A stretch of DNA of 55,499 nucleotides from a virus (IMGVR_UViG_3300030207_002164:1-55499); one strand, 5' to 3'. Counted from the stretch's first letter, positions 6,683 through 55,498 are shown. Numbers and translations: made by a program. Notes: generated by a model from the letters alone, not told the origin.

Positions 6683-6798
6683 GAAAAAAATATTTTAACA
6701 CAAAGAAAAAACGAAAAGATCCAGCAATAGAAGCTGAAAAAATAAGACTCAATAAAATTAAAAATGAAGCTAGAAGTAATAAGATTCAACAAAGGTGA
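6679..6798 (+). CDS. possible 39-aa basic protein (not in ORF track)
   Basis: TTG start overlapping upstream TGA; MRKKYFNTKKKRKDPAIEAEKIRLNKIK...; fills the gap. Confidence 0.4.
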   Translation: MRKKYFNTKKKRKDPAIEAEKIRLNKIKNEARSNKIQQR

Positions 6799-7285
6799 GG
6801 ATGCAACTAACGGCTTACTATTCGATATAACAGATGGACCGAGAAAATTTTTATGCTATACCCTCGAAGATGAAAGCCGCATTGAAAAAGTGTGGGGAGA
6901 AACTTGTATTCCTGAAGGAGAGTATCAAATCAACTTTAGAAAAGAAGGTGGATACCACACCAAGTACAGTAAAAGGTTTGCTGATATACATGTGGGTATG
7001 CTTGAGGTCTGTGACGTCCCTAATTTTAAATATATTCTTCTTCACTGTGGTAATACTGATGAGGACACTGCGGGATGCTTACTACTGGGTGACACGCAAG
7101 AAAACAACGACATCAAAACAAACGGTTTCATCGGTAAGTCGACGCAAGCGTACAAAAGGGTCTACCCGAAAATCGCCAAAGCGCTCGAAGAGGGTGAAGA
7201 AGTGATTATTACGTATAGAGATTTTGCAGAAAGTCTAATATTGCAACCAGCAGATATAACTGAATTTTTTGGAGGAGAAGCATAA
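6764..7285 (+). CDS. DUF5675-family protein (L,D-transpeptidase-like His/Cys; candidate endolysin)
   Basis: TLED...TCIPEGEY...ILLHCGNTDEDTAGCLLLG motif set. Confidence 0.85.
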   Translation: MKLEVIRFNKGEDATNGLLFDITDGPRKFLCYTLEDESRIEKVWGETCIPEGEYQINFRKEGGYHTKYSKRFADIHVGMLEVCDVPNFKYILLHCGNTDEDTAGCLLLGDTQENNDIKTNGFIGKSTQAYKRVYPKIAKALEEGEEVIITYRDFAESLILQPADITEFFGGEA

Positions 7286-9507: not shown

Positions 9508-9672
9508 ATGGCAAAATCAAAAGGCTTAGGAGACTCAATAGAAAAAATAACTAAAGCAACAGGAATAAAGGCTTTGGTTGAAAAATACACTCGCCCTCGC
9601 GGTGGATGCGGTTGCGAGAAGAGAAAAGATAAATTAAATAAAATGTTCCCATATAAAAATGAAAACGTATGA
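9508..9672 (+). CDS. 54-aa GLGD...CGC protein (not in ORF track)
   Basis: MAKSKGLGDSIEKITKATGIKALVEKYTRPRGGCGCEKRKDKLNKMFPY, a recurrent phage small-protein motif. Confidence 0.85.
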   Translation: MAKSKGLGDSIEKITKATGIKALVEKYTRPRGGCGCEKRKDKLNKMFPYKNENV

Positions 9673-10255
9673 TTTATTTGTTGTCAAATTAGAAAGCACA
9701 ACAAAAGACACATTAGTTACAGACAGCGGTCTTGAGCTATATATAGACACTTCTTTTAATGAATTTGAGCACCGAACCACTGAAGGTCCAGTAGTGTGTG
9801 TTCCTTTTAAGTATGATACAGGGGTTGAAGTTGGAGACACATTGTATTTTCACCACCTGGTAGTTATGGGTGGAAATAACGATGGGCAGATATTTACAGA
9901 AGAAGACAATACCTACATAGTAAAGTACGATCCTAAGTTTGCGATAGCTAATCAAGCCATAGCATATAAAAGTCAAAAAGATGGTAAGATACGATGTCTT
10001 ACAGGGTGGTGTTTGTTAAAGCCTGTAGAGCAAGAAGAATTAAATCTTCACTCTGACATTATAGAGGTGGTAGACAATAGTGAAAAACTCCCAACAAAAG
10101 GAGAGGTGGCTTATTTATGTAAAGAAGGAGAGGAAATGGGGTTAGAGCCTGGCGATATTGTTGGGTTTAAAGAGAACAGAGATTACCGCCTAACCATAGA
10201 TGGTCAAGAATACTACCGCACACGTGCAGAAGATTTATACGGGGTCTATGTCTAA
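9659..10255 (+). CDS. groES: co-chaperonin GroES-like protein with two tandem GroES domains
   Basis: TDSGLEL..GPVVCVP..VEVGDTLYF and second unit WCLLKPVE..KGEVAY..LEPGDIVGF..IDGQEYYR. Confidence 0.8.
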   Translation: MKTYDLFVVKLESTTKDTLVTDSGLELYIDTSFNEFEHRTTEGPVVCVPFKYDTGVEVGDTLYFHHLVVMGGNNDGQIFTEEDNTYIVKYDPKFAIANQAIAYKSQKDGKIRCLTGWCLLKPVEQEELNLHSDIIEVVDNSEKLPTKGEVAYLCKEGEEMGLEPGDIVGFKENRDYRLTIDGQEYYRTRAEDLYGVYV

Positions 10256-10797: not shown

Positions 10798-10983
10798 ATG
10801 GCTGACTATAAGTGCGAATGCAATGAACATGAATTAGAATGTTCTAATGTTGTTATTAGAATAATAGAAGGTAAGGCTACACACGACATTAAATGTCCTT
10901 GCGGTAAATATATGAAGCTGTCAAACCCGAAAACAGGCATTGCCTCTCTTGGAAGAATGGACAGGAATGGTAGTAGTTACTAA
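10798..10983 (+). CDS. zinc-ribbon protein (FmdB-like)
   Basis: YKCECNEH...IKCPCGKYM. Confidence 0.75.
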   Translation: MADYKCECNEHELECSNVVIRIIEGKATHDIKCPCGKYMKLSNPKTGIASLGRMDRNGSSY

Positions 10984-13103
10984 TGTCTGCATTACTAAAT
11001 CTAGAAGAATATGAGGACCCTGCTGTCAAGATTTGTCCCAACGGTACGGAAGGTGAGATTATTGAACTCGGTGGGTTACTCATTTGCCTTCCAAAAAGGC
11101 CGCCGAAGAAACAAATTTTCGGACATAAAGAATCAAACTCTATGCAAATGTGGAGAAGGGTATCTATGCCGAAGGAACTGTCTCGTGTTAAATCTATGGA
11201 TGAGTGGGCGGAAATGCCAAGGGAGTTCAGAGAGAGGTTTCGTCCATATATCGAGGAAGAGTTTAGGCGTAGGCGTGAGGGTTTTTGGTTTTATAACAAC
11301 GGTACAGCTACATATATTACGGGGCGGCATTACATGATGCTACAATGGACCAAGCTAGATATTGGTTATCCATACTTTCTTAACTTTCAACGTGAAATCT
11401 TTTTACACATGGCTGCATGCGAAGCTGATCCACGTTGCATTGGTCAGCTTTATACTAAGTGCCGTCGTTCTGGGTATACTAATATATGCTCTGCAGTGCT
11501 TGTTGACGAAGCCACACAAGTTAAAGACAAACTTATGGGTATACAGTCGAAAACTGGTAAGGACGCTCAAGAGAATATTTTCATGAAGAAAGTAGTTTAC
11601 ATGTTTAGAAACTACCCATTCTTCTTCAAACCTATACAAGATGGTACAACTAATCCACGTATGGAGTTAGCTTTTAGGGAGCCATCAAAGCGTATCACTA
11701 AAAAGAACAAAACATCGCAGACAGGTGAGGCGCTTAATACTGTTATAAACTGGAAAAACACAACTAACAACGCATACGATGGTGAAAAGCTACACATATT
11801 GTATTTAGATGAGGCAGGAAAATGGGAAAAACCTACAGACATAAGAGACGCTTGGAGGATTCAGAGGACTTGTTTGATCGTCGGGCGAAAAATAGTCGGA
11901 AAAGCACTCGTGGGAAGCACGGTAAATCCGATGGACAAAGGAGGAAGTCAGTACAAAGATTTATGGAAGGATTCGGATCCGACAGAGAGGAATGCGAATG
12001 GTAGAACCAGATCTGGTTTGTATAGGCTGTTTATACCAGCATACGACTCACTAGAAGGTTTTTTTGATATATACGGGAACCCAGTAATCAACAATCCAGA
12101 CTCAGATGTAATGGGGGTAGATGGAGAACCAGTAATCGTTGGGGCAAAAACTTATTTAAAGAATGAGAGAGAATCTTTAAAAGAAGATGCATCTGAATTA
12201 AATGAGGTTATAAGACAATTTCCATTTACAGAAGATGAAGCTTTTAGAGATAGTATTGAGGGGAGCTTATTTAACGTAGGTAAAATATATGAACAGATTC
12301 AGTACAATGATGAGCTGTTTCCAAACCCAGTTGTAGTTGGTAATTTTGTATGGAAAAACGGAGAAAAAGACACGGAGGTTTTGTTTAGGCCCGATCCTAA
12401 TGGAAGATTTAGAGTTGCTTGGATACCACCAGAAGGTGTGAGAAATCAAAAGTCAACAGATAGGGGTAAAAGAGTACCGCCTAACTCTCATATAGGTTGT
12501 GGAGGTGTCGACTCCTATGATCTTGATTCTACAGTTGATGGAAGGGGGTCTAAGGGTTCTTTACATTTATACAACAAATTTAACATGGAGTATCCTTCAA
12601 ACACTTTTGTCTTGGAGTATGCATCTCGTCCACCTCTTGCAAAAATCTTTTATGAGGATGTTCTTATGGCTGCAGTTTTTTATGGTTATCCTATATTAAT
12701 TGAAAACAACAAGTACGGTATAGCAAGATACTTTGAGTCAAGGGGTTATGATGGTTACTTAATGGATAGGCCTGAGCATTTAAAAGCTCCAAACTCAAAA
12801 GTCAATGTAAAAACTAAAGGCATACCCTCAAACTCTCAAGATGTAATTCAGTCTCACGCTCAATCTATTGAAGCTTACATACACGCGCACGTTGGTATAA
12901 ATAGAGATTCTGGTGAATATGGTAGTATGTATTTTAACAGAACTCTTGAAGATTGGATAGGTTTTAAAATAGATAATAGAACAAAATTTGACCTTACAAT
13001 AAGCTCTGGTTTGGCTCTTTTGGCTTCTCAAAAAACTAAACCAAAACAAAAAACTAACTTTGCTGAGAAGAAGTTTTTTAGGAGATATAATGTGATCGGT
13101 TGA
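10983..13103 (+). CDS. terL: terminase large subunit
   Basis: Walker A KCRRSGYT, Walker B LYLDEAGK, coupling GST, nuclease GGVDSYD and C-terminal FDLTISSG. Confidence 0.95.
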   Translation: MSALLNLEEYEDPAVKICPNGTEGEIIELGGLLICLPKRPPKKQIFGHKESNSMQMWRRVSMPKELSRVKSMDEWAEMPREFRERFRPYIEEEFRRRREGFWFYNNGTATYITGRHYMMLQWTKLDIGYPYFLNFQREIFLHMAACEADPRCIGQLYTKCRRSGYTNICSAVLVDEATQVKDKLMGIQSKTGKDAQENIFMKKVVYMFRNYPFFFKPIQDGTTNPRMELAFREPSKRITKKNKTSQTGEALNTVINWKNTTNNAYDGEKLHILYLDEAGKWEKPTDIRDAWRIQRTCLIVGRKIVGKALVGSTVNPMDKGGSQYKDLWKDSDPTERNANGRTRSGLYRLFIPAYDSLEGFFDIYGNPVINNPDSDVMGVDGEPVIVGAKTYLKNERESLKEDASELNEVIRQFPFTEDEAFRDSIEGSLFNVGKIYEQIQYNDELFPNPVVVGNFVWKNGEKDTEVLFRPDPNGRFRVAWIPPEGVRNQKSTDRGKRVPPNSHIGCGGVDSYDLDSTVDGRGSKGSLHLYNKFNMEYPSNTFVLEYASRPPLAKIFYEDVLMAAVFYGYPILIENNKYGIARYFESRGYDGYLMDRPEHLKAPNSKVNVKTKGIPSNSQDVIQSHAQSIEAYIHAHVGINRDSGEYGSMYFNRTLEDWIGFKIDNRTKFDLTISSGLALLASQKTKPKQKTNFAEKKFFRRYNVIG

Positions 13104-16017: not shown

Positions 16018-16154
16018 TGAGTGTTACTGTAAATAACACAGCAAGCTTTGTTGAGATCGTTGAACCGACTAGATACATAGTTGAGGTGGTTCCACCGACA
16101 TCTTATATAGTATTACATAATTCACCTACAACATATAATATAGACGTAACATGA
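16017..16154 (+). CDS. 45-aa beta-repeat protein (not in ORF track)
   Basis: MSVTVNNTASF-VEIVEPTRYI-VEVVPPTSYI-VLHNSPTTYN-IDVT; coupled at both ends (TAATG, ATGA). Confidence 0.7.
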   Translation: MSVTVNNTASFVEIVEPTRYIVEVVPPTSYIVLHNSPTTYNIDVT

Positions 16155-18640
16155 AGAATAAAAGTTATTTATTAGTCATTTTGTTTTGGCTGCTAACATT
16201 GTGTGTGTTAGGTCAACCTGGTAACGACAGTATACCGCCTCCTTGTTCTGGTGTTGAAAATCTACAAGGTCAGATTGATTGCTTTCCTTTTGCGCCTAAT
16301 CAAGGTCAACTACAGGTTATGTGGACTATACCTGAGCCTGGATGTAATCCAGTTGGATTCTACAGAGGTGATGACTTAGACGACCTACAGTTTGTGCCAT
16401 ACGGCCAGTGGTTTAATGGTAGTTTTTATGGTGGCGTTCCATCTTCACCTGTATCAAATGATGAGTACTATTTTATAGTAGAGTCTCCTGGTGAGGTTAT
16501 GGATACACTTGTGATTGAAAATCCAAATTGCGGTATTGGTTGCTTAGACCCAGTGGCATCTAACTACAATCCTTTTGCTGGTATAGAGAGTGAGTTTGGG
16601 GAGTCGTGTCAATATGGCGAAGTGTCAGAATGTGGTAATACATTCACACAAAAAGTCTATGTAAGTATAACTGCAGATACATATTCTCAGTGGGAAACGA
16701 GCTGGGAGATAGTTACTACGGACAGCATCCCCATAGTTCTTGCTAGCGAAGATATAGGTTTTTATCAAACAGAGGGATTAAATGTAACAACAGAATACTG
16801 TATACCTCTTGGAGCAGAGTTTACATTCAATATATACGACACATTTGGAGATGGACTTGCAGGATCTACAACGGGAGGATTTACAGATGGAGATGTTCTT
16901 GTATATACAGAGTGTGGTAATACTATATACAGCATACTACCTTTTGAGGGTCAGAATCCTGATTACGGATATGAAGCTGTTAGTGTACCTAACCTATTAA
17001 ACCCATGTCCCCCAGACAACCCTCCGTTTGGGTGCTTAGATCCAAACTACTTAGAGTTCAACTCTCTCGCTACAAACAACGATTCTAATCTATGCGTAAC
17101 TACTGCTATTCCAGGCTGCCTTAACGAGAACGCATTCAACTACGATCCAGAGGCAAATATCATGGATTACATTCCTGAGTGTGAATATACCCTTATGTTA
17201 TTTGACGGAGGAGGCGATGGATGGGACGGATCTTACTTAGGTGTTGTGCAGAACGGCGAACCTATTGGTGCGTTTACATGCACAGAAGAGCAAGTATTCT
17301 ATGATATAACAGTAAGCTCTCAAACACACGTAGAGTTTAAGTTTTACGAAGTTGAGTTTGGTAGTTTCTTTGGGGAGGGAGGTACAAGCACTGATGTATC
17401 ACAATGTGGATTTAAACTAATAAGCCCTAACGGTAATATAGTCTTTGAGAAGGGAACTAATCCTTGGTTAGATCCTATAGATCCTGACGAAGTATATACG
17501 CCTTACTTAAGATGCGGTAACTACTGCGAGCCTTACACATACGGATGTACAGACGAGGCTGCGCAGAACTATGATAGTGATGTTAACACAGAGGATGGTA
17601 GTTGTTACTACCAAGCTGGCTGTGCACAAGCTGGTTATTTAGAATATTACACGCAAGGATATGAAGCTGATTATGATGATGGTAGTTGTAATACTATTGC
17701 TGTGTTTGGATGTATGGATGAAGAAGCATTTAACTACAGCGCAGAAGCAAATGTAGATAACGAAGGCTGCATACCTGTAGTTCTAGGTTGTATGAATCCT
17801 CTAGCCTATAATTACTTACCATCTGCAAACGTCGATGACGATAGCTGCATACCTTACATATATGGATGTATGGACCCAGGTGCATATAACTACAACCCCA
17901 ATGCAAATATAGATGACGGAGAATGTGAGCCATTTATATATGGATGCACTGACAATACTATGTTTAATTATAACCCTGCTGCAAATGCCGAATACGACCC
18001 TACTAATTGTGAGCCTTATATCTATGGTTGCACCGATCCTAGCATGCTTAACTATAACTCATCCGCTAACACAGAAGATTTTAGCTGTATTCCTTACATT
18101 TACGGTTGTACTGATCCTACTGCCCTTAATTATGATGAGTTGGCTAATACAGACAACGGCTCGTGTATTGAAGTATTAGTCGACTGCATGGATCCTGATG
18201 CATTCAATTATAATGAGTTAGCTAACACTTCTGACGAAGAAGTTTGCTTATATGATGCAGGATGTATAGGTGGGCCTGGTGAGCCATACTGGCTTAACGA
18301 TGGTTGCTATGCTTGGATCATAGACATCGACCCATACTGCTGTGAGATTGCATGGGATGAAACGTGCGTAGATCTTTACTCGTACTGCGAGCAAGGTTGG
18401 CCGCAGGGAGTGCTAGAAACAACAAGAGATATAACCGTATATCCTAACCCTGCAAGCATGATCTTAAACGTGCAGGCCCCCGTAGGAGCTATTACAAGCT
18501 TATATAACGCATTTGGTCAGCTTGTAGTGGTTGGGACTACAGACAGTACAATAAATCTCTCACAGCTCTCTAATGGCGTGTATGAGGTTGTAATAGAATA
18601 TAATGGAATAATTATTAACAAGAAAATTATAAAATCATGA
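16151..18640 (+). CDS. Cys-rich repeat protein with signal peptide and C-terminal type IX secretion (type A) sorting domain
   Basis: Signal peptide ending VLG-Q; 12 GCxDxxAxNY-type repeats; CTD VYPNPAS...LYNAFGQLV...INLSQLSNGVYEVVI...KKIIKS. Confidence 0.9.
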   Translation: MKNKSYLLVILFWLLTLCVLGQPGNDSIPPPCSGVENLQGQIDCFPFAPNQGQLQVMWTIPEPGCNPVGFYRGDDLDDLQFVPYGQWFNGSFYGGVPSSPVSNDEYYFIVESPGEVMDTLVIENPNCGIGCLDPVASNYNPFAGIESEFGESCQYGEVSECGNTFTQKVYVSITADTYSQWETSWEIVTTDSIPIVLASEDIGFYQTEGLNVTTEYCIPLGAEFTFNIYDTFGDGLAGSTTGGFTDGDVLVYTECGNTIYSILPFEGQNPDYGYEAVSVPNLLNPCPPDNPPFGCLDPNYLEFNSLATNNDSNLCVTTAIPGCLNENAFNYDPEANIMDYIPECEYTLMLFDGGGDGWDGSYLGVVQNGEPIGAFTCTEEQVFYDITVSSQTHVEFKFYEVEFGSFFGEGGTSTDVSQCGFKLISPNGNIVFEKGTNPWLDPIDPDEVYTPYLRCGNYCEPYTYGCTDEAAQNYDSDVNTEDGSCYYQAGCAQAGYLEYYTQGYEADYDDGSCNTIAVFGCMDEEAFNYSAEANVDNEGCIPVVLGCMNPLAYNYLPSANVDDDSCIPYIYGCMDPGAYNYNPNANIDDGECEPFIYGCTDNTMFNYNPAANAEYDPTNCEPYIYGCTDPSMLNYNSSANTEDFSCIPYIYGCTDPTALNYDELANTDNGSCIEVLVDCMDPDAFNYNELANTSDEEVCLYDAGCIGGPGEPYWLNDGCYAWIIDIDPYCCEIAWDETCVDLYSYCEQGWPQGVLETTRDITVYPNPASMILNVQAPVGAITSLYNAFGQLVVVGTTDSTINLSQLSNGVYEVVIEYNGIIINKKIIKS

Positions 18641-18813
18641 AAGTAGATTGGATTAACAGCTGGAAAGCTGGAAACAAAAAAGAGAAATACCATTTTTCTC
18701 TTAGATTAGGAACTCTAGTTGTGTTTGAAATAAAAGCATGTTTTTTTTGTGACGGACTTTGTTCAAATCAAAAATTTAGATTTATGATACTCAACTTTGG
18801 ATTTCAATTCTAA
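18637..18813 (+). CDS. 58-aa amphipathic beta-strand protein (not in ORF track)
   Basis: MKVDWINSWKAGNKKEKYHFSLRLGTLVVFEIKACFFCDGLCSNQKFRFMILNFGFQF; coupled at both ends. Confidence 0.75.
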   Translation: MKVDWINSWKAGNKKEKYHFSLRLGTLVVFEIKACFFCDGLCSNQKFRFMILNFGFQF

Positions 18814-19886
18814 TGACACATAAAAAAGATTTAACTGTACTTGTCTATGCTATAATTATGATTGTAGCCTTTATTCTGGGCACAACTCTTGAGGCAAAAG
18901 GACAAACATTAAAGAAAACATTTAAGTACGCCACATTTTACACTGCATTTAGCGGTGGTAATTCTGTAGCTGACGATAACATATACTCCGTAACAAATGG
19001 CTTACAGACTAATGTTGTTGAAACTCCATTCGATTATTCTATTACAGCTGGTGTTCGTAAGATCGCTAGGTTTGGATATGAGAACAGGGCTAATGTATTC
19101 TACGACGGTACAGAAAAATCTTATAGTGATGCAGCAAACATTGGTAAAGTAAAAGGTTTTGAGTTTTTATTTGAAGCTGACTGGCGTAGACAGCAGGGCA
19201 GAAACTTCTTGGATCAGGATTACTTCTTGCGCTATGTAGCAAAAAACTGGATAGCAAAAGCAGAATATTTACAAGACGGTTTTGCAGATGTAGAATACTT
19301 TGAGGGTTCTGAGCGATTTAGACTTAATGTAAATGACCGCCTCAGTTTTAACATCGGTATGGCTCAGCGTATATCTGAGCCTTACGGGTATAACCCTTTA
19401 GAAGAATGGGTTTTATCAAACAATAACATCCACTATACCAGTCTTGCTCTACAAGAAGGTTATACTGTAGACGTACAAGGCGGTGAATACTTTGCGCCCG
19501 ATGGCACACTTGTAGCAAACAGCGTTGATGTATGGGAGCAGGTTATTATACCTCAAGTTATTGACGACTATGTAGCCAGGAAGAGAAGTGAGCTTCCGAG
19601 TGTATGGAACTATTCTTTAGTAGTTGGATATGATTATTACAAGTATTCTAAAGAGTTTTGGCTTCACAGCTGGGCCAGTGTAATGCCTTATCATCTTAAG
19701 ACTAATGATGAATTTTCTTATTTTGAAACCACCGAAGGGGGGCAATGGATAGATTACGGTGCAGGCCTTATCTTTGGATGGAGATTAAACAAGAGTCTTG
19801 GTGTATTCTTAGAGGGTAAATACAATAAGTATTGGAATCGAGAATGGCATGATTTCTCTGTCGGACTAAACTATGTGATATTGTAA
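18813..19886 (+). CDS. predicted outer-membrane beta-barrel protein
   Basis: Signal peptide ending AKG-Q; many aromatic-girdled amphipathic strands; terminal GLIFGWRLNKSLGVFLEGKY...DFSVGLNYVIL. Confidence 0.8.
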   Translation: MTHKKDLTVLVYAIIMIVAFILGTTLEAKGQTLKKTFKYATFYTAFSGGNSVADDNIYSVTNGLQTNVVETPFDYSITAGVRKIARFGYENRANVFYDGTEKSYSDAANIGKVKGFEFLFEADWRRQQGRNFLDQDYFLRYVAKNWIAKAEYLQDGFADVEYFEGSERFRLNVNDRLSFNIGMAQRISEPYGYNPLEEWVLSNNNIHYTSLALQEGYTVDVQGGEYFAPDGTLVANSVDVWEQVIIPQVIDDYVARKRSELPSVWNYSLVVGYDYYKYSKEFWLHSWASVMPYHLKTNDEFSYFETTEGGQWIDYGAGLIFGWRLNKSLGVFLEGKYNKYWNREWHDFSVGLNYVIL

Positions 19887-20170
19887 TGGCTAAACAAATT
19901 GGAGAAGATACTAAAGTAACCTTTGACCTTAAGACAATAGGTATGGGTGTAGCAGGGCTAGCAGCTCTTATAGGGATGTGGTTTACATTACAAGCTGACA
20001 TTGCTTTGGCTAAAGAATTACCAGAACCAGCAGATCCAGAGATTACACGCATGGAGTTTGATATGAAGGACCAGCTAGTACGTCAAACAATTATGACAAC
20101 TCAAGAAGATGTGTCAGAGCTAAAAGAAGATCTAGACCGCATCGAAGAAAAAATAGATAAACTGCAATGA
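19886..20170 (+). CDS. single-pass membrane protein with C-terminal coiled coil
   Basis: TM IGMGVAGLAALIGMWFTL; heptads VSELKEDLDRIEEKIDKLQ. Confidence 0.8.
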   Translation: MAKQIGEDTKVTFDLKTIGMGVAGLAALIGMWFTLQADIALAKELPEPADPEITRMEFDMKDQLVRQTIMTTQEDVSELKEDLDRIEEKIDKLQ

Positions 20171-20766
20171 GATTAGCTAAAAAATATAATCAAGGTGGTA
20201 AGCCTTTGACTCCATTCCAAAAAGCTTTTGCTAAAGCTAGAGACGAAGGCAAAGAAACTTTTATGTTTGAAGGAAAGCCATACACTACTAGAACAGAACA
20301 AGAAGAGTATTCTAAATATATTCAATCAGGAGGGCCTAGGAGTATAGATGATATATTTAATTCTCCAGAAGCTATAGCAGAAAGAAAGCAGAGAGAAGAG
20401 GATTATCGGTGGCTGACATCCATGGATAATCCAGCGAACTGGGCGACTGGGGCTATTCAACCAATGGAAGGTTTTAATGACCCTATATTTAATATTTTAC
20501 TAGGTGGTAGGATGCTTCAAAAGCCTGCACAGCAGGCCTTAAAAACAGCGTTAGGTCCTAAGTATAATCCATTAAACCCACAGTATAATCTTAATCGAGG
20601 TGCGCGAGGTCTTGGGCCTGAAAACATATATGAAAGACTTGCTGGAAAAGTTAGTAGATACGGTACTAGAGATTATGCTCCAGGTGCAGGACCAAGCCCA
20701 ACTGTCGTTAATAGAATTGCAGATTTTATTACCGATAATCTACCATCTTTTTTAAGATCACAATGA
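20167..20766 (+). CDS. putative internal virion protein (YNQGG tag, FxxAFxxAR..G..F...G..YTT domain)
   Basis: KKYNQGGK; FQKAFAKARDEGKETFMFEGKPYTTR. Confidence 0.75.
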   Translation: MRLAKKYNQGGKPLTPFQKAFAKARDEGKETFMFEGKPYTTRTEQEEYSKYIQSGGPRSIDDIFNSPEAIAERKQREEDYRWLTSMDNPANWATGAIQPMEGFNDPIFNILLGGRMLQKPAQQALKTALGPKYNPLNPQYNLNRGARGLGPENIYERLAGKVSRYGTRDYAPGAGPSPTVVNRIADFITDNLPSFLRSQ

Positions 20767-21101
20767 TGAGGTTATTTTACATATGTTTACTTGCAATGAT
20801 ATCTGTTGGTATGGGTATACCAGACTCAGGGGTTTGTGTTGTAGAATTCAACGCTAGCTTCAATGCAGCTAACAGTGTGGATTGGATTGACGATTTAAGT
20901 GACTGTAAAGGGAGAAGAGTAGATATAGCTGCCGAACCAGACTTGCAAAGAGAACACAAGATTGTTGTAGTACCTACTGTAATTGTATTTAATGACGGAG
21001 AAGAAGTAGAAAGATTTCAAGCCAACATTATGATGCAGCTTGAAGCTACGCAGGATGATGTGCAAGAAGCGGTTGATGAAATTATAATGAGTGACTTCTA
21101 A
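20763..21101 (+). CDS. exported thioredoxin-fold protein lacking CxxC
   Basis: Hydrophobic N-terminus; VVEFNASFN replaces DFxAxWC; VDI...IVVVPTVIVFNDGEEVERF is a thioredoxin C-terminal signature. Confidence 0.8.
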   Translation: MMRLFYICLLAMISVGMGIPDSGVCVVEFNASFNAANSVDWIDDLSDCKGRRVDIAAEPDLQREHKIVVVPTVIVFNDGEEVERFQANIMMQLEATQDDVQEAVDEIIMSDF

Positions 21102-21403
21102 TGCCTAAGGTTAAGAAAAGAAAAAATAAAATGCCTAAGAAGTTCTCCATTAAAAGTGGAGATAAATCTCCTTCTGGAGGTTTAACGGCTAAGGGTGTAA
21201 GACGTTATCGTGCAGCTAATCCAGGCAGTAAATTAAAGACTGCAGTTACTGAGTCTTCACCAAAAGGTAAGAGAGCTAAAAGAAGAAAGTCGTTTTGTAA
21301 GCGCATGTGTGGAATGAAGAAGAGAAGAACTAGCGCTAAAACAGCAAGAAATCCTAAATCAAGAATAAACAAGGCACTAAGAAAGTGGCGCTGTAGATGT
21401 TAA
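21101..21403 (+). CDS. very basic small virion-associated protein
   Basis: GGLTAKG...RRKSFCKRM.GM...SRINKALRKW motif. Confidence 0.8.
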   Translation: MPKVKKRKNKMPKKFSIKSGDKSPSGGLTAKGVRRYRAANPGSKLKTAVTESSPKGKRAKRRKSFCKRMCGMKKRRTSAKTARNPKSRINKALRKWRCRC

Positions 21404-21407
21404 TGAT

Positions 21408-21599
21408 ATGAAAGCTTTAAAACTAAAAAAAGGAAAAAAATTAACCATATCTAGCAAGACCGTTTCAGTTGATCCACCTAGCGGGTATCACTGGATGGAA
21501 GAAAGTGGTAGGTACTACTTGATGAAGGGCGATTATAAACCCCATCCAGGCGCTGTGCCTAAAGCTAAATTTAAAACTGCAAACCATGCCAAATCTTAA
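21408..21599 (+). CDS. small basic hypothetical protein
   Basis: ORF track; PPSGYHWM...YKPHPGA. Confidence 0.75.
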   Translation: MKALKLKKGKKLTISSKTVSVDPPSGYHWMEESGRYYLMKGDYKPHPGAVPKAKFKTANHAKS

Positions 21600-21759
21600 A
21601 AAGAAAAAAGAATTCAAGAAAGGTGGTACGACTAAAGATGCTTGCTACCACAAGGTAAAGGCACGTTATAAAAAGTGGCCTTCTGCTTATGCTTCAGGTG
21701 CTTTGGCTAAGTGTCGTAAAGTTGGTGCTGCTAACTGGGGTAATAAGAGTAAGAACTAA
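21586..21759 (+). CDS. 57-aa basic protein with WPSAYAS motif (not in ORF track)
   Basis: MPNLKKKKEFKKGGTTKDACYHKVKARYKKWPSAYASGALAKCRKVGAANWGNKSKN; TAATG coupling. Confidence 0.8.
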   Translation: MPNLKKKKEFKKGGTTKDACYHKVKARYKKWPSAYASGALAKCRKVGAANWGNKSKN

Positions 21760-22031
21760 TGCCTAGGGTTCGCAAAACTAAAAAAGGTTTAGCACTTAAA
21801 CGCTGGTTTAAAGAGAAGTGGAGAACCCCAAGAGGTAAAAAAAGATATAGCGGTAAAGACAGAACATTTAGACCTACAGTTCGTGTGTCAAAAGATACGC
21901 CTGCTACATGGTCTGAATTAAGCCCTTCAGAAAAAAGAAGGGCCGCTGCAGAAAAACGCACTAAAGGTAGGGTTTCTAGATATAGAAGGAAAAGAAAGGT
22001 TAAGGTGAAAAAAAACAAATCAGATAAATAA
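21759..22031 (+). CDS. basic protein with LKRWFKEKW motif (DUF5872-like)
   Basis: GLALKRWFKEKW...RPTVRVSKDTP.TWSEL. Confidence 0.8.
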   Translation: MPRVRKTKKGLALKRWFKEKWRTPRGKKRYSGKDRTFRPTVRVSKDTPATWSELSPSEKRRAAAEKRTKGRVSRYRRKRKVKVKKNKSDK

Positions 22032-22057: not shown

Positions 22058-22465
22058 ATGGCTACAGCAACAATACGATTAACTAGCGATATAACAGGCG
22101 ACGCTCTTTCTGTAAACGAAACAGCTACATTGACAAAGGCTAACTCAGCAGACGATGGATTAGATCAATTCACTGGAGTGAACACTCTTTATTTTGAGTC
22201 TACGCAGAGTGACACAAATGTAGTAGCTGCTGCAGATTACGTGGACACAACAGTTGCGCATAAAGTATATATTAGAAATGCAAGCTCTAGCGGCTTTGTA
22301 ACAGTTGATATAGACTCTAGTGCAAATGAACCGCTTGGTAGATTATATCCAGGGGATTGGACTTTCTTTCCATATGACGGAACATTAGATGTTGACATTG
22401 ATACTAGCGCTGCTGGTATGACTGTAGAAGTAGCTGTTTTATCTCAAGCTGCAGTATCATCATAA
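22058..22465 (+). CDS. virion beta-sandwich protein, paralog 1
   Basis: KVYIRN...LGRLYPGDWTFFP. Confidence 0.85.
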   Translation: MATATIRLTSDITGDALSVNETATLTKANSADDGLDQFTGVNTLYFESTQSDTNVVAAADYVDTTVAHKVYIRNASSSGFVTVDIDSSANEPLGRLYPGDWTFFPYDGTLDVDIDTSAAGMTVEVAVLSQAAVSS

Positions 22466-22476
22466 TAATTTAAAAC

Positions 22477-22872
22477 ATGGCAACATCAGCAACATTAACA
22501 TTAGATGCATCGGAGTTCACAGGGGGAGCTGCTTTCTCAGTGGAAACAACTTTTCTTAAGGCTGGGACTAGCGATGATATTACTCAATTTACTGGCCTTT
22601 CTCGAAGAGAGGTTTCAGCCGCAACAAACGACATATCTATTGTAGCTGCATCAGAGTATGCTGATAATCAGGCTGGAAAATTGTATTTTAAAAATACATC
22701 AACAACAGCTGCTAGCACATACATCTTAATGGAGGTTGGCAGTAATGTAATTATTGGTAGATTATATCCAGGAGATTGGATGTTAATACCTGTAGATGGA
22801 ACGGAGGACATTAAGGCTTCTACCTCTGCGGCAGGAATGAGTTATGAATTTGGATTTTTCCACGAAGGTTAA
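22477..22872 (+). CDS. virion beta-sandwich protein, paralog 2
   Basis: KLYFKN...IGRLYPGDWMLIP. Confidence 0.85.
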   Translation: MATSATLTLDASEFTGGAAFSVETTFLKAGTSDDITQFTGLSRREVSAATNDISIVAASEYADNQAGKLYFKNTSTTAASTYILMEVGSNVIIGRLYPGDWMLIPVDGTEDIKASTSAAGMSYEFGFFHEG

Positions 22873-22878
22873 TATAAG

Positions 22879-23280
22879 ATGGCAACAATAACAGCAACAT
22901 TTAGTTTAGACAGCTCAGATTTAACAAGCGATCCTTTAACTCTTAGGACTTCAGCTATACTTACTAAAGCTGGAACTGTTGTTGGTATGACAGACGCAAC
23001 TGGTTTAGCAAGAAAAACTACAACCGCAACAGACACAATAACTTTGTTTGATGGTGCGGACTATACCGACAACATGGCGGGTAAGATATATATAAAGAAC
23101 TTATCTACAATTGCGTCAGAGTTTATAACTATTTTTATGAACTCGGAAAAAATTGGTAGGCTGTATGCAGGCGATTTTGCTTTTTTGCCTTATGCTGCTG
23201 ATGCAGATACAAACGATTTCAAATACGCTCCTAGCGTTAGCACATCTTTAACTGTTGAATACATATTAATACACGAATAA
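22879..23280 (+). CDS. virion beta-sandwich protein, paralog 3
   Basis: KIYIKN...IGRLYAGDFAFLP. Confidence 0.85.
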   Translation: MATITATFSLDSSDLTSDPLTLRTSAILTKAGTVVGMTDATGLARKTTTATDTITLFDGADYTDNMAGKIYIKNLSTIASEFITIFMNSEKIGRLYAGDFAFLPYAADADTNDFKYAPSVSTSLTVEYILIHE

Positions 23281-23684
23281 TGGCAAAAGTAAGATCAACA
23301 TTATCTTTATCTAGCTCAGACGTTTTATCGTCTAACTTAAATCTTACTGTGGGTTCATCCATAGATGCAGATTCTGGAAATCTTAGCAGAGCTAAAGTAT
23401 TAAAAACTGCTGTTCATAACGACGCATTAGTCGTTTACAAATCAAACGATAAATTAGAAGCTGCTTATCTATACGTTAAGAATTTAGACGAAGAAAAAAC
23501 TAAATACATTTATTTATATCAAGACACTGATAACGATGATGTTTTTGCTAAGATTGGTGGGGGTGAGTTTGCCTTTATACCAGTTGCAATAGACAAAACA
23601 ATAAAAGTTTATGCAACACGCATTGACACTATGGTTGAGTACGGTGTGTTTGGATTGGATAGCTCAGCAGTAACATTATCATAA
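23280..23684 (+). CDS. virion beta-sandwich protein, paralog 4
   Basis: YLYVKN...FAKIGGGEFAFIP. Confidence 0.85.
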   Translation: MAKVRSTLSLSSSDVLSSNLNLTVGSSIDADSGNLSRAKVLKTAVHNDALVVYKSNDKLEAAYLYVKNLDEEKTKYIYLYQDTDNDDVFAKIGGGEFAFIPVAIDKTIKVYATRIDTMVEYGVFGLDSSAVTLS

Positions 23685-23694
23685 TAAAAAAAAT

Positions 23695-24291
23695 ATGGCA
23701 ACATTATCAAATACAGGAATGTCAAATCAAATGGCATTTGGTCAATTAGGAAGTGCATTTTTAGATACAGACGCGGGAGTTTTAGTTCCCCCTAATGGAA
23801 TGGTTGTAGTGGCTATTCAGTGTTTAGGTGATACTGAGTTTGATATTCTTACTGCTGAAGATCCAGATACGTTTATAAACACAATATCAGCTTCGCATGC
23901 AACTGCAGCAGATACTGTTTCTACAGGAGTTACTGCAGGTACGTTTATAGATATGGATGGGGACGCTACAGCTGAGGTAGGTGACTCTATGTATTTATCA
24001 TCGACGGGTGCTTTTATAGCGAAAGTAAAAAGAGTAGGATTTGACTCATCAGGGGCTGCTGACGCTTCAGCAATAGAGCTTGACAGACCAGCCACAGTAA
24101 CTACCGCTGCTCATTCTTTTGCAAGTAATACTAAAGGTGGAGGCGGTCTCATTCTGGACACGAGTAATGTATTCCCAAAGGGTATGACAATTTACGGTAG
24201 ATGGACTTGTGTAAGCCTTTCAGGAGATCAAGAAAGTGACGGAGTTGTATGTTACTTTGGTCCCGCTAAAGCAGGCAGCACTACACTATAA
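23695..24291 (+). CDS. virion structural protein
   Basis: FGQLGS...FPKGMTIYGRWT...VCYFG. Confidence 0.8.
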   Translation: MATLSNTGMSNQMAFGQLGSAFLDTDAGVLVPPNGMVVVAIQCLGDTEFDILTAEDPDTFINTISASHATAADTVSTGVTAGTFIDMDGDATAEVGDSMYLSSTGAFIAKVKRVGFDSSGAADASAIELDRPATVTTAAHSFASNTKGGGGLILDTSNVFPKGMTIYGRWTCVSLSGDQESDGVVCYFGPAKAGSTTL

Positions 24292-24313: not shown

Positions 24314-25396
24314 ATGGAAGAAAATAAAGAATCAGTTGGTGGCTTCGAGGTATTCGACACACCAGAACAACTGTCTGCATCTATGCAGTCAGAACCACAA
24401 AACGAAACAACACAAGAGGCTCCACAACAGGAGTCTCAACCTATTCAAGAAACTTCTACTCCTGAGGTAGCTCCTCAAGTAGAATCACAACAGTCAGGTC
24501 AACAGCAAGAGTCTGCTATGCCTGATGATAATTACTCCGATGAACAAGTCGAAGGTGCGGTTTTAGAGTTTCTAAGCGAGAAGCTTGGAAGAGAAATTAC
24601 GTCTTTTGATGGTTTTTCAGAGGGTGAAGGCACAACACAAATTGACGAAAGAGTTGAGGCTATTGCCAGGTTTGTTAATGACACTGGCAGAAATCCTAAT
24701 GATTGGTTTGCTTACCAGCAGTTAAATCCGTCTGAGATGGACGACGTAACAGCAGTTAAGGTGCAAATAGCAACAGAAAATCCAGAACTCACAGCTCAAG
24801 AAGTGGAACTGCTTCTCAACAGCAAGTATAATATCAACGATGACTTAGCGTCAGAAGATGAAATTAATGTTGCTAAACTTCAGCTTAAAATGGAGGCTAA
24901 TAAAGCTAGAAAGAATATTGAGGGCTTGCGCTCTAAATATTTAGCTCCACAACCTCAAGCGGCTGAACCTCGCTCTTTTGTTAACGATGATTGGATTGCC
25001 GATATGTCTAACGAAGTAGATAATCTGGAAGGTCTAGAGTTTGATCTTTCTGGAGATAAAAAATTTACATTCGGTTTTGATGAAGCATACAAGAATCAGT
25101 TAAAGCAGAGCAACGCCAGCATAGAAACTTTTTTTGATGAATTTGTCAATGAAGACGGAAGCTGGGATTTTGATGCGCTTTCATCAACTATGGCTGTAAG
25201 AGACAATATTGATAAAATAGTTTCTTCAGCTTACACTCAAGGGCTCAGCGATGGGCAAAGAGGTATTGTTGATAAAGCTGCTAATATTTCAAACAAGTCA
25301 CCACAGATGGGAGATCAAAATCAATCATCACCTCTAGCCGATCAAGTAAAACAAATAATGAGAGGTACTAGAGATAAGGTGACATTTAATATTTAA
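24314..25396 (+). CDS. capsid scaffolding protein
   Basis: Acidic disordered N-terminus plus helical body, immediately upstream of MCP. Confidence 0.75.
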   Translation: MEENKESVGGFEVFDTPEQLSASMQSEPQNETTQEAPQQESQPIQETSTPEVAPQVESQQSGQQQESAMPDDNYSDEQVEGAVLEFLSEKLGREITSFDGFSEGEGTTQIDERVEAIARFVNDTGRNPNDWFAYQQLNPSEMDDVTAVKVQIATENPELTAQEVELLLNSKYNINDDLASEDEINVAKLQLKMEANKARKNIEGLRSKYLAPQPQAAEPRSFVNDDWIADMSNEVDNLEGLEFDLSGDKKFTFGFDEAYKNQLKQSNASIETFFDEFVNEDGSWDFDALSSTMAVRDNIDKIVSSAYTQGLSDGQRGIVDKAANISNKSPQMGDQNQSSPLADQVKQIMRGTRDKVTFNI

Positions 25397-25409: not shown

Positions 25410-26822
25410 ATGGCTAGTATAGGAAGTACAAGAGGTACAGATCTACCAAATATTGATGCTACGTCGAATAGAGCATTTAGAATTTCTCCAGAGACGTACA
25501 CAACAGTAGACACTCTTATTAAAACTACAAAAGACCAGGTTATGCCTGACCTGGTTGAAACTTACGGTGAGCAAGGTATCACTGGTTTCTTAAAACTAAC
25601 AGGCGCTATCAATAGCGGAGGATCATCTGATCAGATTGACTGGTGGGAGATGGGTCGTCGTCACAAGACGTACACTTACGCTGTTGCTAACATTACAAAC
25701 AACACAACTAACATTGTTGTTGCAGCAGGTGATGACTCGTTCACTTCAAACGTAGAGGTAAACGATGTTATCATGGATAGCTCAACAGGAACTCGTTACA
25801 TTGTTCAAGCTGGTGGATTCTCAACTGGTGTTGCATCAAACGTAACAATGGTTCTTTTGAACGGTAACGCAGCAATTACTTCAGGAACTCACTACGACGC
25901 TGTAGGCGGAGAGTGGATCAAGCTTGGTAATATGTACGCTCAAGGAACAAATCAGCCTGTTGGATTTGACGATCCAGGTGTAATCCGTCGTTCTAACCCA
26001 TTCATGATCGTAAAAGATCGTTACGAGGTAAACGGATCACAAGCAACTAACATCGGTTGGGTAAATATCGGAGGCGGTGAATACCGTTGGTTCATGAAGG
26101 GTGAGCAGGAAGCTCGCGCTCGTTTTGAGGACCGTCGTGAGCTTATGATGCTATTTGGAGAGAAGCACAGCGGAACAGCTGGTACTGCTTTAGACAACGA
26201 TTTGGCTGGTTCTGAGGGTTACTTCTCAGCTATCGAAGATCGTGGTATTCAAGTAAGCAACGCTGCTTCTTCACCAATGGACACATTTGGTGAGTTTGAT
26301 GATATCATCCTTGAGTTAGATAAGCAAGGTGCACCTTCTGAGTACGCTATGTACTTAAACAGAAAGCAAGACTTAGCAATTGACGATATGTTAGCTATGG
26401 GTCTTTCTGGTGGTGTTACTACTGGTCTTCCAGGACAATTCGGAGCATTCAACAACGACGCAGACATGGCTGTAAAGCTTGGATTTAAGTCGTTTACTCG
26501 TGGTGGATACACTTTCCATAAGCACGATTGGAAGCTTCTTAACGATCCAACTCTTCTAGGTACATCTAACTTTATTCAGGGAGCTATGGTTCCTCTGTCT
26601 CAAGTAACAGATGCTCGTAGCGGAATGAAGGCGCCAGCTTTAGCTATGTACTATAAAGAAGCAAACGGATACAACCGTGAGATGGAGCACTGGGTAACAG
26701 GAAGTATCCTAGGTCACTACAACAATGGTGATGTAGGTTCTGACAATGCAGTATTCCACTACCGTTCAGAAATTGCTCTTTGTGTACGTGCTGCTAACCA
26801 ACACGTTGTAATTAAAGGTTAA
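25410..26822 (+). CDS. major capsid protein
   Basis: 470 aa after scaffold; strongly biased highly expressed codon usage (CGT, AAC, TTC); EGYFSAIEDRG, LGFKSFTRGGYTF motifs. Confidence 0.9.
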   Translation: MASIGSTRGTDLPNIDATSNRAFRISPETYTTVDTLIKTTKDQVMPDLVETYGEQGITGFLKLTGAINSGGSSDQIDWWEMGRRHKTYTYAVANITNNTTNIVVAAGDDSFTSNVEVNDVIMDSSTGTRYIVQAGGFSTGVASNVTMVLLNGNAAITSGTHYDAVGGEWIKLGNMYAQGTNQPVGFDDPGVIRRSNPFMIVKDRYEVNGSQATNIGWVNIGGGEYRWFMKGEQEARARFEDRRELMMLFGEKHSGTAGTALDNDLAGSEGYFSAIEDRGIQVSNAASSPMDTFGEFDDIILELDKQGAPSEYAMYLNRKQDLAIDDMLAMGLSGGVTTGLPGQFGAFNNDADMAVKLGFKSFTRGGYTFHKHDWKLLNDPTLLGTSNFIQGAMVPLSQVTDARSGMKAPALAMYYKEANGYNREMEHWVTGSILGHYNNGDVGSDNAVFHYRSEIALCVRAANQHVVIKG

Positions 26823-53879: not shown

Positions 53880-54316
53880 TGAGTAAGAAAAAAATTAAAG
53901 ACACCAAGCTTGGATCTTGGTTAGCAGAAAAAGCACCACAAGTATTAGGTGTAGTAGGAGACCTTCTACCAGATAGCGGTGGACTGGGCGTTGTGAAAAA
54001 TCTAATTGACAGTGATGATAGTGTTGACTCAGAAGAAGCTCAACGTGTGATCGACGCAGAGGTTAGGTTTCAGGAAAATGTAACAGAGCGCTGGAAGGCT
54101 GACATGGGCAGCGATGTTAAGCTGGCTAAACTTATACGCCCTGTTACACTTATATGCCTGATGGCTATGTTTATGATCACCATGATGATAGACAGCATGG
54201 ACAATGTTGCATTCAACGTGAAGGACTCATACGTCTCTCTGCTTGAGTTGCTTATGCTTACAGCCTTTGGTGCGTACTTTGCAGGGCGTACCATCGAGAA
54301 GAAGTCAAGTAAGTAA
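53879..54316 (+). CDS. holin (GTA/3TM-like)
   Basis: TERWKADMGSD..LAKLIRP + TM ... FGAYFAGRTIEK. Confidence 0.85.
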   Translation: MSKKKIKDTKLGSWLAEKAPQVLGVVGDLLPDSGGLGVVKNLIDSDDSVDSEEAQRVIDAEVRFQENVTERWKADMGSDVKLAKLIRPVTLICLMAMFMITMMIDSMDNVAFNVKDSYVSLLELLMLTAFGAYFAGRTIEKKSSK

Positions 54317-55498
54317 TTATCTTACTGGGCATGCACCGCTTGCGCAGTCATCTATCTCTATGTCTTCCATTTTGATTTCATGAAGAGAGGTGATTGGCGT
54401 GCATTGCTTCTTTAATTTGTTGTATGTCTTTTTGTCAATCTCTTCTAGTGGAGCTTGATCAAAACCATGGTCGTTATGAAGCAAGAAAGAAACAGATTTT
54501 ACGTTTACGTAATTATCGCGTAACCACGCTTTAATTGCGTCTAATTCTTCTTTCCTATAGTAAACGGTCACTGACACCGAGTTATCGCTCCATTCGGCCT
54601 GTAATCGCTTTATAACCTCTAGTTGATCTACTGCTGACATATCAGCTGCAAACATGGTTCCTTTTGGAAACTTGCATGGGAACTCCACAACAACTGTTGA
54701 GTGGTCCTCTGTGCCGTCAAAGTTTCTCACATATTCTATGCGAAAGCCATTCTTTCTGCACACGCTGACCAACTCGCTATTAGCAGACATTCGTATTCTC
54801 CTAATGTAATGTTCTGAGTATCCAGGGTGTGCTCCTGGTGTAACGCCAGCAAGTAAACTAAGCGTTCCAGATGGTTTAACTGTTGTAAGTTTAATAGATG
54901 TAGGGAATCCTGCGTCCCTAGAGTAAATTCTGTCATATTCACGTAGGTAAATGTAGCAACTTTCGAGCCAACTGCGTTGCTCCTCTGTTGCCTGTAAATA
55001 ACCTGTCACACCTATACCCATTCTCATGTGTCTGTGGACAATATCTTCTGTCTCTTTGACAGCACACTTGATAGACAGGCTATGTTTGTTGATGCGGTAC
55101 AGGTAGACAGCTACCTTCTTAAGTTCTTTTTCTGACTCTATGTTCGGTAGATATATCTCAGCTAGACAGCATGTCTCAAATGGAGCAAGAGATTGTTCCG
55201 CACACGGATTGTAACCCATCACATCTGGATCAGGGTATTGCATTTCACCTGTTCTACCCATGCGCCTTGATGCTTCTAGGTTGATTAGACCGTAAGGTTC
55301 TCCGTTACCTTCATAGCCACCCCAAAACTCATCAGGTAGTTGATCTATATCATCACACACCACTGAGTTGTTAGACATTGCTCTCCAGTTAGGGATACCG
55401 CCTAGGTCCCAACGCTTTGCGCGTAGATAGTCAAGATCGTCGTGATCTCCTAGAGCAATCTGAGCTGAACGTCTCACGTTTCCAGCTACAACTATCTT
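54317..55498 (-). CDS. nrdJ: class II (adenosylcobalamin) ribonucleotide reductase, monomeric RTPR type; 5' end outside window
   Basis: Frame open to window edge (KIVVAGNVRRSA); NPCAEQSL, TTVKPSGTLSLL, C-terminal CASGACP. Confidence 0.95.
   Translation of the reverse strand, partial: KIVVAGNVRRSAQIALGDHDDLDYLRAKRWDLGGIPNWRAMSNNSVVCDDIDQLPDEFWGGYEGNGEPYGLINLEASRRMGRTGEMQYPDPDVMGYNPCAEQSLAPFETCCLAEIYLPNIESEKELKKVAVYLYRINKHSLSIKCAVKETEDIVHRHMRMGIGVTGYLQATEEQRSWLESCYIYLREYDRIYSRDAGFPTSIKLTTVKPSGTLSLLAGVTPGAHPGYSEHYIRRIRMSANSELVSVCRKNGFRIEYVRNFDGTEDHSTVVVEFPCKFPKGTMFAADMSAVDQLEVIKRLQAEWSDNSVSVTVYYRKEELDAIKAWLRDNYVNVKSVSFLLHNDHGFDQAPLEEIDKKTYNKLKKQCTPITSLHEIKMEDIEIDDCASGACPVR

Follow-up and report, generated by a model that had tools for sequence, protein, structure and literature searches.

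The stretch of viral DNA IMGVR_UViG_3300030207_002164:1-55499 (hereafter the window, 55,499 nucleotides in all) is a 55.5-kb IMG/VR contig whose completeness CheckV estimates at 86%, with ~14% missing. Six plus-strand open reading frames (ORFs) fill positions 16151-21101 of the window, between the portal gene and the scaffold and major capsid genes. Comparison with related loci identifies this block as a mobile late-gene cassette that is found only on phage-like contigs and whose conserved core consists of three genes, coding for a putative outer-membrane (OM) beta-barrel (g357), a transmembrane (TM) coiled-coil protein (g94) and a redox-dead thioredoxin-fold protein (g112); a type IX secretion system (T9SS) cargo protein, g829 in the window, is a usual but optional companion. 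The cassette products appear to be directed to the host envelope, and the phages that carry them appear to infect marine Bacteroidota. We propose, tentatively and with rather less than even confidence, that the cassette serves the outer-membrane step of lysis or progeny release as a trans-envelope assembly in which the cargo is docked on the barrel. The genes of the block and the two marked regions of its cargo are as follows.

16151-18640, plus strand: g829, 829 aa, predicted type-A T9SS cargo
18278-18409 (aa 710-753 of g829): conserved six-cysteine module just ahead of the C-terminal sorting domain (CTD)
18437-18634 (aa 763-828 of g829): CTD
18637-18813, plus strand: g58, 58 aa, small conserved protein with an optional four-cysteine loop
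18813-19886, plus strand: g357, 357 aa, putative outer-membrane beta-barrel with a signal peptide
19886-20170, plus strand: g94, 94 aa, predicted bitopic membrane protein with TM segment at aa 17-35
20167-20766, plus strand: g199, 199 aa, an insertion between g94 and g112
20763-21101, plus strand: g112, 112 aa, thioredoxin-fold protein with a hydrophobic N-terminal segment

A sequence-only reading made before this analysis had described six overlapping genes between portal and capsid genes, and every junction within the block is indeed an ATGA (-4) or TAATG (-1) overlap. The overlaps are not, however, special to the six: a chain of nine consecutive overlaps runs from g146 through a 45-aa ORF into g829 and on through g112 to g100. 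The same reading had assigned different envelope-targeting features to four of the products, and these were recovered by hydropathy scans and family profiles in 4 of the 6: a signal peptide and a CTD in g829, a signal peptide in g357, a TM segment in g94 and a hydrophobic N-terminus in g112. Two of its more specific assignments stood as well, since the TIGR04183 profile scores the C-terminus of g829 at 34.2 bits against a cut-off of 23, and a profile of the g112 family finds 174 thioredoxin sequences in the PDB at E ≤ 1 (best E 5.9e-7) while the CxxC motif is replaced by invariant asparagines in 42 of 42 sequences. All signal-peptide and TM calls reported here come from in-house hydropathy scans, not from SignalP or DeepTMHMM. 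These scans detect neither a signal peptide nor a TM segment in g58 and g199, and across the late operon the four cassette products and g145, a putative holin, are the sole proteins with either feature, the internal hydrophobic segments of a giant protein aside.

Conservation and contiguity of the cassette

For the comparison of loci, the best 80 were kept from each of the barrel and thioredoxin queries and were collapsed to 94 distinct barrel genes, with counts limited to those having enough flanking sequence. Relatives of the barrel were present in 487 of 495 candidate viral stretches and relatives of the thioredoxin in 189 of 197, and the order of the cassette genes is kept across hundreds of viral contigs; the objection that these genes might not co-occur in other phages, raised with the sequence-only reading, thus fails. 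The TM protein and the thioredoxin lie downstream of the barrel in 89 of 90 distinct loci, and a g829-like cargo lies directly upstream of it in 67 of 74. Where the barrel is at least 45% identical to that of the window, the cargo is upstream in 67 of 68 loci, versus 0 of 6 in a divergent barrel subfamily, counts that are not phylogenetically independent; the lone exception among the closer barrels, L083, carries its cargo downstream within the same cassette. The trio occurs with no cargo within 10 kb in six distinct loci, and a distant trio without cargo occurs in L157, whose thioredoxin-like gene lacks a signal peptide and whose g94 homologue bears an N-terminal extension. Some loci have further genes placed between members of the cassette. 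Of the remaining members, g58 is present in 61 of 149 loci and g199 has relatives in none of the 149, so that to treat the six genes as the unit was an overstatement.

Protein identities were compared at the two genomic positions described below. At portal-side loci (n=40) the median identity to the window is 86% for g94, 82% for the barrel, 76% for the thioredoxin, 67% for the portal, 65% for the capsid and 41% for the cargo. At holin-side loci (n=33) the corresponding values are 79% for the holin-like protein, 78% for g94, 71% for the thioredoxin, 66% for the barrel, 40% for the cargo and 35% for the C-terminus of the giant protein. The cassette is also found in lineages whose terminase is only 21-24% identical to that of the window, and in two of these, L069 and L080, g94 is still 73-79% identical.

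The block was also recovered in independent assemblies. Seven runs from three studies, one of them possibly the source sample, hold at least half of the words sampled from 16151-21101. Contigs of X1 and X4 with zero differences from the window bridge portal/g146/g829, then g94/g199/g112 (g199 itself being present at 0 differences in both), then g112/g100/g63. With these junctions bridged in the assemblies of other studies, and the block joined to phage genes, it is not a misassembly, and a second objection to the sequence-only reading falls away. An RNA library sharing its sample with X7 yielded contigs that lie on g829, g357, the g357/g94 junction, g112 and the portal and scaffold genes; as evidence of transcription they are a weak hint, DNA carry-over being possible, and neither the coverage gaps of the RNA library nor the runs holding a small share of the words were given evidential weight.

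Genome setting and the two sites of the cassette

The genes outside the block on which the following account draws are these.

10983-13103: terminase, resembling Flavobacterium, Cellulophaga and Tenacibaculum podophage proteins at 28-32% identity
13139-15574: portal, 28-32% identical to Flavobacterium, Cellulophaga and Tenacibaculum phage portals
16017-16154, plus strand: 45-aa ORF joining g146 to the cassette, with TAATG at its start and ATGA at its end
21101-21403, plus strand: g100, basic DUF6321 protein (E 2.6e-17) overlapping the end of g112
24314-25396: scaffold gene
25410-26822: major capsid gene (phrog_13704, E 7.6e-112)
53879-54316, plus strand: g145, 145 aa, putative holin of the GTA 3TM type, outside the block in the window

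The portal gene of two annotated relatives has the scaffold-like and capsid genes directly 3' of it. In the window ~8.7 kb separates portal from scaffold, and the six-gene block forms the first 5 kb of this extra stretch. A consensus scan for promoters and terminators, whose scope does not extend to Bacteroidota promoters, returned 41 sites where 39.9 were expected and 11 where 7.4 were expected, none of them at the cassette borders; the lack of any such site at the borders beyond chance indicates that the block is embedded in the late operon. The cassette DNA has no match among GenBank phages, and eight proteins searched against the PADLOC models of anti-phage defence and exclusion matched 0 families at E ≤ 0.01. 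A DUF6321 gene of the g100 type is also found 3' of the thioredoxin gene in L108.

Among 62 distinct loci with at least 8 kb of upstream sequence, the cassette follows the portal in 34 and adjoins a g145 homologue in 22, with both in 0 and neither in 6. This alternative placement in related genomes indicates that the cassette moves between two sites. The holin call for g145 derives from a match to PF11351 (E 0.0035; 18.3 bits against a cut-off of 24.8) and from identities of 33-47% to proteins annotated as holins. Its gene lies directly 3' of that for the 2,900-aa giant protein, and it is far better conserved than the C-terminus of that neighbour (79% versus 35% median). Two loci illustrate the holin-side arrangement: L055 has the order giant protein, holin-like protein, DUF2272 protein, cargo, barrel, TM protein and thioredoxin, and L108 has giant protein, holin-like protein, barrel, TM protein, thioredoxin, DUF6321 protein and a ribonucleotide reductase gene 87% identical to that of the window. 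The DUF2272 protein, found in L055 only, is a possible endolysin, its role as a wall enzyme being a guess.

Products of the cassette

The barrel, g357, is a putative OM beta-barrel of an undescribed family found only on phage-like contigs. Its signal peptide comes with a glutamine (Gln31) that is invariant in the family, the mature protein is 18.7% aromatic and has 0 cysteines, and the family alignment displays 15 alternating-hydrophobic segments. In the Atlas, every one of the closest named clusters consists of OM barrels (0.93-0.94), which serves as a lead only. Searches of Pfam (E ≤ 0.1, including PF24653), PHROG, NCBIfam and PDB sequences returned no match to g357, nor did Pfam match the barrel portion of 10 divergent relatives, the FGE-sulfatase domain of one of them (P0198) covering a different part of the protein. 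The PorP/SprF family (PF11751) was considered and ruled out: it gave no match at E ≤ 0.1 nor in a six-frame search, comparison with the six PorP/SprF proteins of a Sphingobacteriales metagenome-assembled genome (MAG), G001, gave an hhalign probability of 1.3% with a shallow profile, and the absence of cysteine from mature g357 contrasts with an invariant C-terminal cysteine in those six. PorV (PF19572) was likewise ruled out, with no Pfam match and an hhalign probability of 0.3% against five PorV proteins.

Among 8,000 scored candidates from marine metagenomes, the barrel family accounts for no fewer than 3,638 clusters (90% identity), and it has 422 representatives when the threshold is 50% identity; none of them is named or bears a Pfam domain. 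No cultured example and no match in GenBank phages was found. Among 185,579 species genomes the barrel occurs in 5 contigs only, all from MAGs. These GTDB contigs, L153-L157, carry the cassette and are labelled Parvibaculum, Nitrosopelagicus, Sphingobacteriales, Rickettsiales and Pelagibacter; five unrelated taxon labels, one of them an archaeon, lead us to read the contigs as phage, and their placement in MAGs is probably misbinning. In L157, too, the barrel has a glutamine after its signal peptide.

The cargo, g829, carries a signal peptide at aa 1-21 with glutamine at +1, and its C-terminus matches Por_Secre_tail (PF18962) at 34.9 bits against a cut-off of 27. In a six-frame search this CTD, at 39.8 bits, was the only one in the window, and T9SS-dependent export of the cargo is predicted accordingly from its sequence. 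The protein contains 43 cysteines, including ~12 two-cysteine repeats of ~26 aa each, and two GDG-motif domains; family profile searches detected no enzyme domain. The C-termini encoded upstream of barrels match PF18962 in 78 of 90 unique cases and have in common the six-cysteine module before the CTD; apart from this module, the cargo varies more than any other cassette protein (median identity 40-41%). In 10 of 10 other cargos the CTD is the only domain at a significant or near-significant level, with an additional weak X25 match in L101.

Residues 22-460 of g829 have 398 homologue clusters, mostly proteins of 950-1450 aa that carry a CTD and in some cases MAM domains; their contigs reach 230 kb and may be cellular. 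Among 201 genomes of the class of G001, only partial matches to this cargo region were seen, in 14, and the best of them is probably a misbinned phage contig itself. In the Atlas search with residues 22-460 every score was <0.8, and a PDB sequence search with g829 gave only a weak match of its CTD region to a lipase chain (E 0.14). Metagenome contigs break at 17690-18290 within g829, and many joints skip 53-379 bases of the two-cysteine repeat array, which suggests variation in repeat number or high microdiversity. In some loci (L118, L061 and L082) a basic ORF continues in frame into the cargo ORF, leaving the signal peptide internal, an arrangement that could represent either a fusion or an internal start.

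The glutamine after the hydrophobic region is shared by 89 of 89 barrels and by 61 of 61 cargos with a hydrophobic N-terminus, where chance would give ~38%. This fits the Q rule for signal peptidase I substrates of Bacteroidetes (PMC10367356). Together with the portal relatives and the CTD, the glutamine rule leads us to infer a Bacteroidota host.

The most conserved protein of the cassette is g94, with a mean column identity of 83%. Its strongly conserved, Gly/Ala-rich TM segment is preceded by 2.4 lysine or arginine residues and followed by 0.9, and its topology is probably N-in/C-out. After the TM segment come a proline-rich linker and a ~43-aa helix with a heptad pattern, in which L/I/V/M occupy 8 of 12 a/d positions. 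In architecture, though in architecture only, g94 therefore has the make-up of an i-spanin, namely an N-terminal TM segment and a predicted periplasmic coiled coil. It has no match among GenBank phages.

In g112 the redox site of thioredoxin is lost. FNAxFNxxN replaces FWAxWCGPC, the WCGPC position reading FNAAN, and N30, N34 and N37 are the invariant residues, with N34 and N37 at both active-site cysteine positions. The cis-Pro loop is retained as VVVPT, and the C-terminal phenylalanine is invariant. As a single sequence g112 falls below the curated cut-offs (18.5 versus 23.5 bits for PF00085 and 21.6 versus 96.8 bits for TIGR01068), and the protein has no match among GenBank phages. A hydrophobic N-terminus is present in 83 of 91 of these thioredoxins, of which 8 of 83 satisfy the glutamine rule, against a chance expectation of ~38% that we calculated from a glutamine frequency of 3.9%; the low figure suggests that the cell treats their signal in another way, perhaps leaving it as an uncleaved anchor. 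No recurrent fusion of the thioredoxin-like domain was found, only four one-off longer proteins with unrelated domains.

Of the two remaining products, g58 is judged a genuine small protein on the evidence of 33 unique variants with in-frame indels. No family match was obtained for g199.

A possible role at the outer membrane

In the scheme that we tentatively favour, g94 would be held by the inner membrane and project its helix into the periplasm, where g112 would also reside, possibly by way of an uncleaved anchor, and g357 would be inserted in the OM, such that the trio could form an envelope-spanning assembly. The cargo would be exported by the T9SS of the host and would then dock on the barrel. 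The trio might thus act as a substitute for spanins in which a barrel takes the place of the lipoprotein, with the cargo as a surface-acting accessory. A role in lysis is favoured because the four products and g145 stand out as the only signal-peptide or TM proteins of the late operon and no lipobox ORF accompanies them, because g94 is built like an i-spanin, and because the cassette often lies where spanin genes would be expected, that is, at the holin side. Also counted for the link with lysis is the similar degree to which the core and the holin-like protein are conserved at holin-side loci. As to the lipobox, a crude regular expression applied after a longest-first overlap filter found no such ORF of at least 35 aa, a test whose scope excludes an o-spanin embedded in a longer gene. 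A more ambitious version of this scheme, which we consider unlikely, would have the trio be a phage-built trans-envelope machine assembled via host Sec and Bam, replacing spanins in abundant marine Bacteroidota phages and mostly coupled to a T9SS hijack that equips the barrel with a variable adhesin; lysis and surface remodelling would then issue from one movable cassette.

A number of observations weigh against a function in lysis. The cassette of the window lies ~33 kb from g145, itself a holin candidate that scores below the Pfam cut-off, and no endolysin was identified in the window. The periplasmic part of g94 is only ~58 aa long, and the protein matches no spanin or holin family in PHROG, Pfam or NCBIfam. 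Spanins usually evolve fast, whereas g94 is highly conserved, even in L069 and L080 with their divergent terminases. The large, variable, adhesin-like T9SS cargo has no obvious job in lysis, and the adjacency to a holin-like gene may be incidental, the end of a late operon being a common site for morons. The signal-peptide scan on which the count of exported proteins depends is, moreover, an in-house heuristic.

The main rival explanation, which we rate as rather unlikely, is that the cassette displays a protein at the cell surface. The cargo would then be an adhesin or carbohydrate-binding effector, acting in receptor masking, in blocking superinfection, in stopping progeny from sticking to debris or in attaching cells to particles; the barrel would be its dedicated OM anchor or shuttle, and g112 and g94 would fold or deliver the cysteine-rich cargo in the periplasm. 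The order of cargo then barrel mirrors that of a type-B cargo gene followed by its PorP/SprF shuttle gene (PMC12618676), and the same order is seen in G001, where at least four of the six PorP/SprF genes (L158-L163) lie directly 3' of a gene with a type-B CTD-like end. The barrel subfamily tracks the presence of the cargo, within a cargo that otherwise varies most the six-cysteine module before the CTD is conserved, and the homologues of the cargo N-terminus are themselves large CTD proteins, some with the MAM domains noted above. A redox-dead thioredoxin fold could be a chaperone, like the b' domain of protein disulfide isomerase (PDI). For variable phage T9SS cargo, Bellas et al. have suggested roles in exclusion or competition (PMC7468147). 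Counting against a display system, the trio persists without cargo in the six loci described above and in L157. The CTD is of type A, the type that goes to host PorV, which is reported to be in excess or recycled (PMC12618676). Nor is the barrel related to PorP/SprF or PorV, and it lacks cysteine altogether, whereas SprF uses one or more C-tail cysteines to form a disulfide bond with GldK (PMC12635249). The absence of any PADLOC match also weighs against this reading.

Less probable still, and in our estimation distinctly so, is a pair of proteins that time lysis, with g94 as a one-TM holin or holin partner bearing a periplasmic domain, g112 as a periplasmic regulator on a releasable uncleaved anchor, after the model of T4 holin T with antiholin RI, and the barrel as a sensor or relay of outer-membrane events. 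The N-in/C-out topology of g94 and its conserved Gly/Ala-rich TM segment would suit such a part, the rarity of the glutamine rule in g112, set against its universal presence in barrel and cargo, suggests a different fate for its signal, and a holin-like gene adjoins the cassette in 22 of 62 loci. But the likeness to T4 is one of architecture, with no sequence relation, g145 is already a holin candidate, and the link between barrel and cargo is left unexplained. Equally improbable is a set of unrelated accessory genes, morons that are merely linked and serve separate functions with no joint system. Here one may cite the coming and going of g199 and g58, the insertion of other genes between cassette members, and the lack of recurrent fusions; on the opposite side stand the order of the trio, kept in all but one of 90 loci, at two genome positions and in three holin-side loci with terminases ~22% identical, and the overlapping start and stop codons. 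That the block is a host-derived misassembly, or that virion structural proteins have been taken for exported ones, is exceedingly improbable. The cargo N-terminal homologues on long, possibly cellular contigs are the one point in its favour, and it is countered by the zero-difference contigs that bridge the junctions, by the seven runs from three studies, by the near-absence of the barrel from species genomes other than as presumed misbinned phage, and by signal peptides that vary in sequence yet are always present.

Relation to known systems and significance

The sequence-only reading had held that Sec-exported products in a morphogenesis operon are unexpected, a claim that was overstated: lambda lom and bor are late-operon morons, and further precedents exist. 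T9SS-CTD genes lie beside the head genes of gut Bacteroidota phages (PMC6949934), variable T9SS cargo genes are carried by 'Cryophage' (PMC7468147), and outer-membrane proteins (OMPs) with a beta-barrel have been described in huge phages alongside a cyanophage OMP-like family (bioRxiv 10.64898/2026.10.24.761521). A limited literature search found separate descriptions of parts, namely phage T9SS cargo and phage OMPs, and no description of the present gene combination.

Each of the systems that the cassette calls to mind resembles it in part. In pairs of type-B cargo and PorP/SprF the cargo gene directly precedes that of its OM barrel partner, as it does that of the putative barrel here, and the two are co-expressed; some such operons add a PorE-like envelope-anchoring gene. 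The cassette differs in its type-A CTD, in an unrelated barrel without C-tail cysteines, in its location on phages and in two more partners, the TM coiled coil and the dead thioredoxin, that are more conserved than the barrel. Two-component spanins such as Rz/Rz1 of lambda share with it an inner-membrane protein of type II whose coiled coil is periplasmic (as predicted for g94), an adjacent gene for an OM partner and, in 22 of 62 loci, a holin-like neighbour. In the cassette, by contrast, the OM partner is a putative barrel rather than a lipoprotein, a third, periplasmic component is present, g94 is short, lacks cysteine and belongs to no matching family, and the copy in the window is far from the holin-like gene. 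Redox-inactive thioredoxin folds such as PDI b/b' and calsequestrin have also retained the fold and cis-Pro loop with loss of CxxC, but g112 is stand-alone, predicted to be exported and phage-only, with invariant asparagine at both cysteine positions and an invariant C-terminal phenylalanine. Phage OM barrels, namely Lom of lambda and the huge-phage OMPs and cyanophage OMP-like proteins (the latter two from bioRxiv 10.64898/2026.10.24.761521), are Sec-exported barrels, as g357 is proposed to be, encoded in late or accessory regions and sometimes in virion-assembly loci; g357 bears no sequence relation to them by the Pfam searches reported above, and its phages, of 55-65 kb, carry it within a multi-gene cassette of fixed make-up. 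Finally, the reports on phage T9SS type-A cargo (PMC7468147, PMC6949934) concern variable genes of phages with a type-A sorting domain at their end, in some cases close to head genes. They describe the cargo by itself; in the cassette it is linked to a conserved trio, and barrel subfamily and cargo vary together.

With this cassette, phages may have a novel means of opening or remodelling the surface of their hosts. If the trio is a spanin substitute, it would fill a gap in those phages of Gram-negative hosts that have no findable spanin; if it is a display system, phages would be seen to use the T9SS together with a partner that they encode. In both cases, three new protein families gain a testable job, among them a barrel family that is large yet unnamed. 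Marine Bacteroidota are major degraders of algal polysaccharide, and the combination of glutamine rule and CTD offers a sequence marker for host prediction.

Other genes of the window

Between the cassette and the scaffold gene, a series of small, strongly basic proteins is encoded at 21101-22031 on the plus strand, with matches to DUF6321 (E 2.6e-17) and DUF5872 (E 4.8e-12). They are followed at 22058-23684 (plus strand) by four paralogues in tandem, each 131-135 aa long and lacking both a family and an export signal, and then by a 198-aa protein at 23695-24291. Two copies of the 131-135-aa paralogue lie within the cassette of L083, between the TM protein and the thioredoxin, and a weak copy lies 3' of the thioredoxin in L058 and L117. 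Upstream of the terminase, at 9659-10255 (plus strand), is a co-chaperonin resembling GroES (phrog_13932, E 9.5e-41). The contig end, at 54317-55477 on the minus strand, is occupied by a ribonucleotide reductase fragment (PF02867, E 6e-12). A DUF5675 protein (E 3.3e-27; phrog_1501) is encoded at 6764-7285 on the plus strand, with a faint match to a Tlde1 domain (E 0.046); as a guess, it is a candidate for a cell-wall enzyme or an endolysin, and L080 has a copy, 60% identical, 1.8 kb downstream of its cassette.

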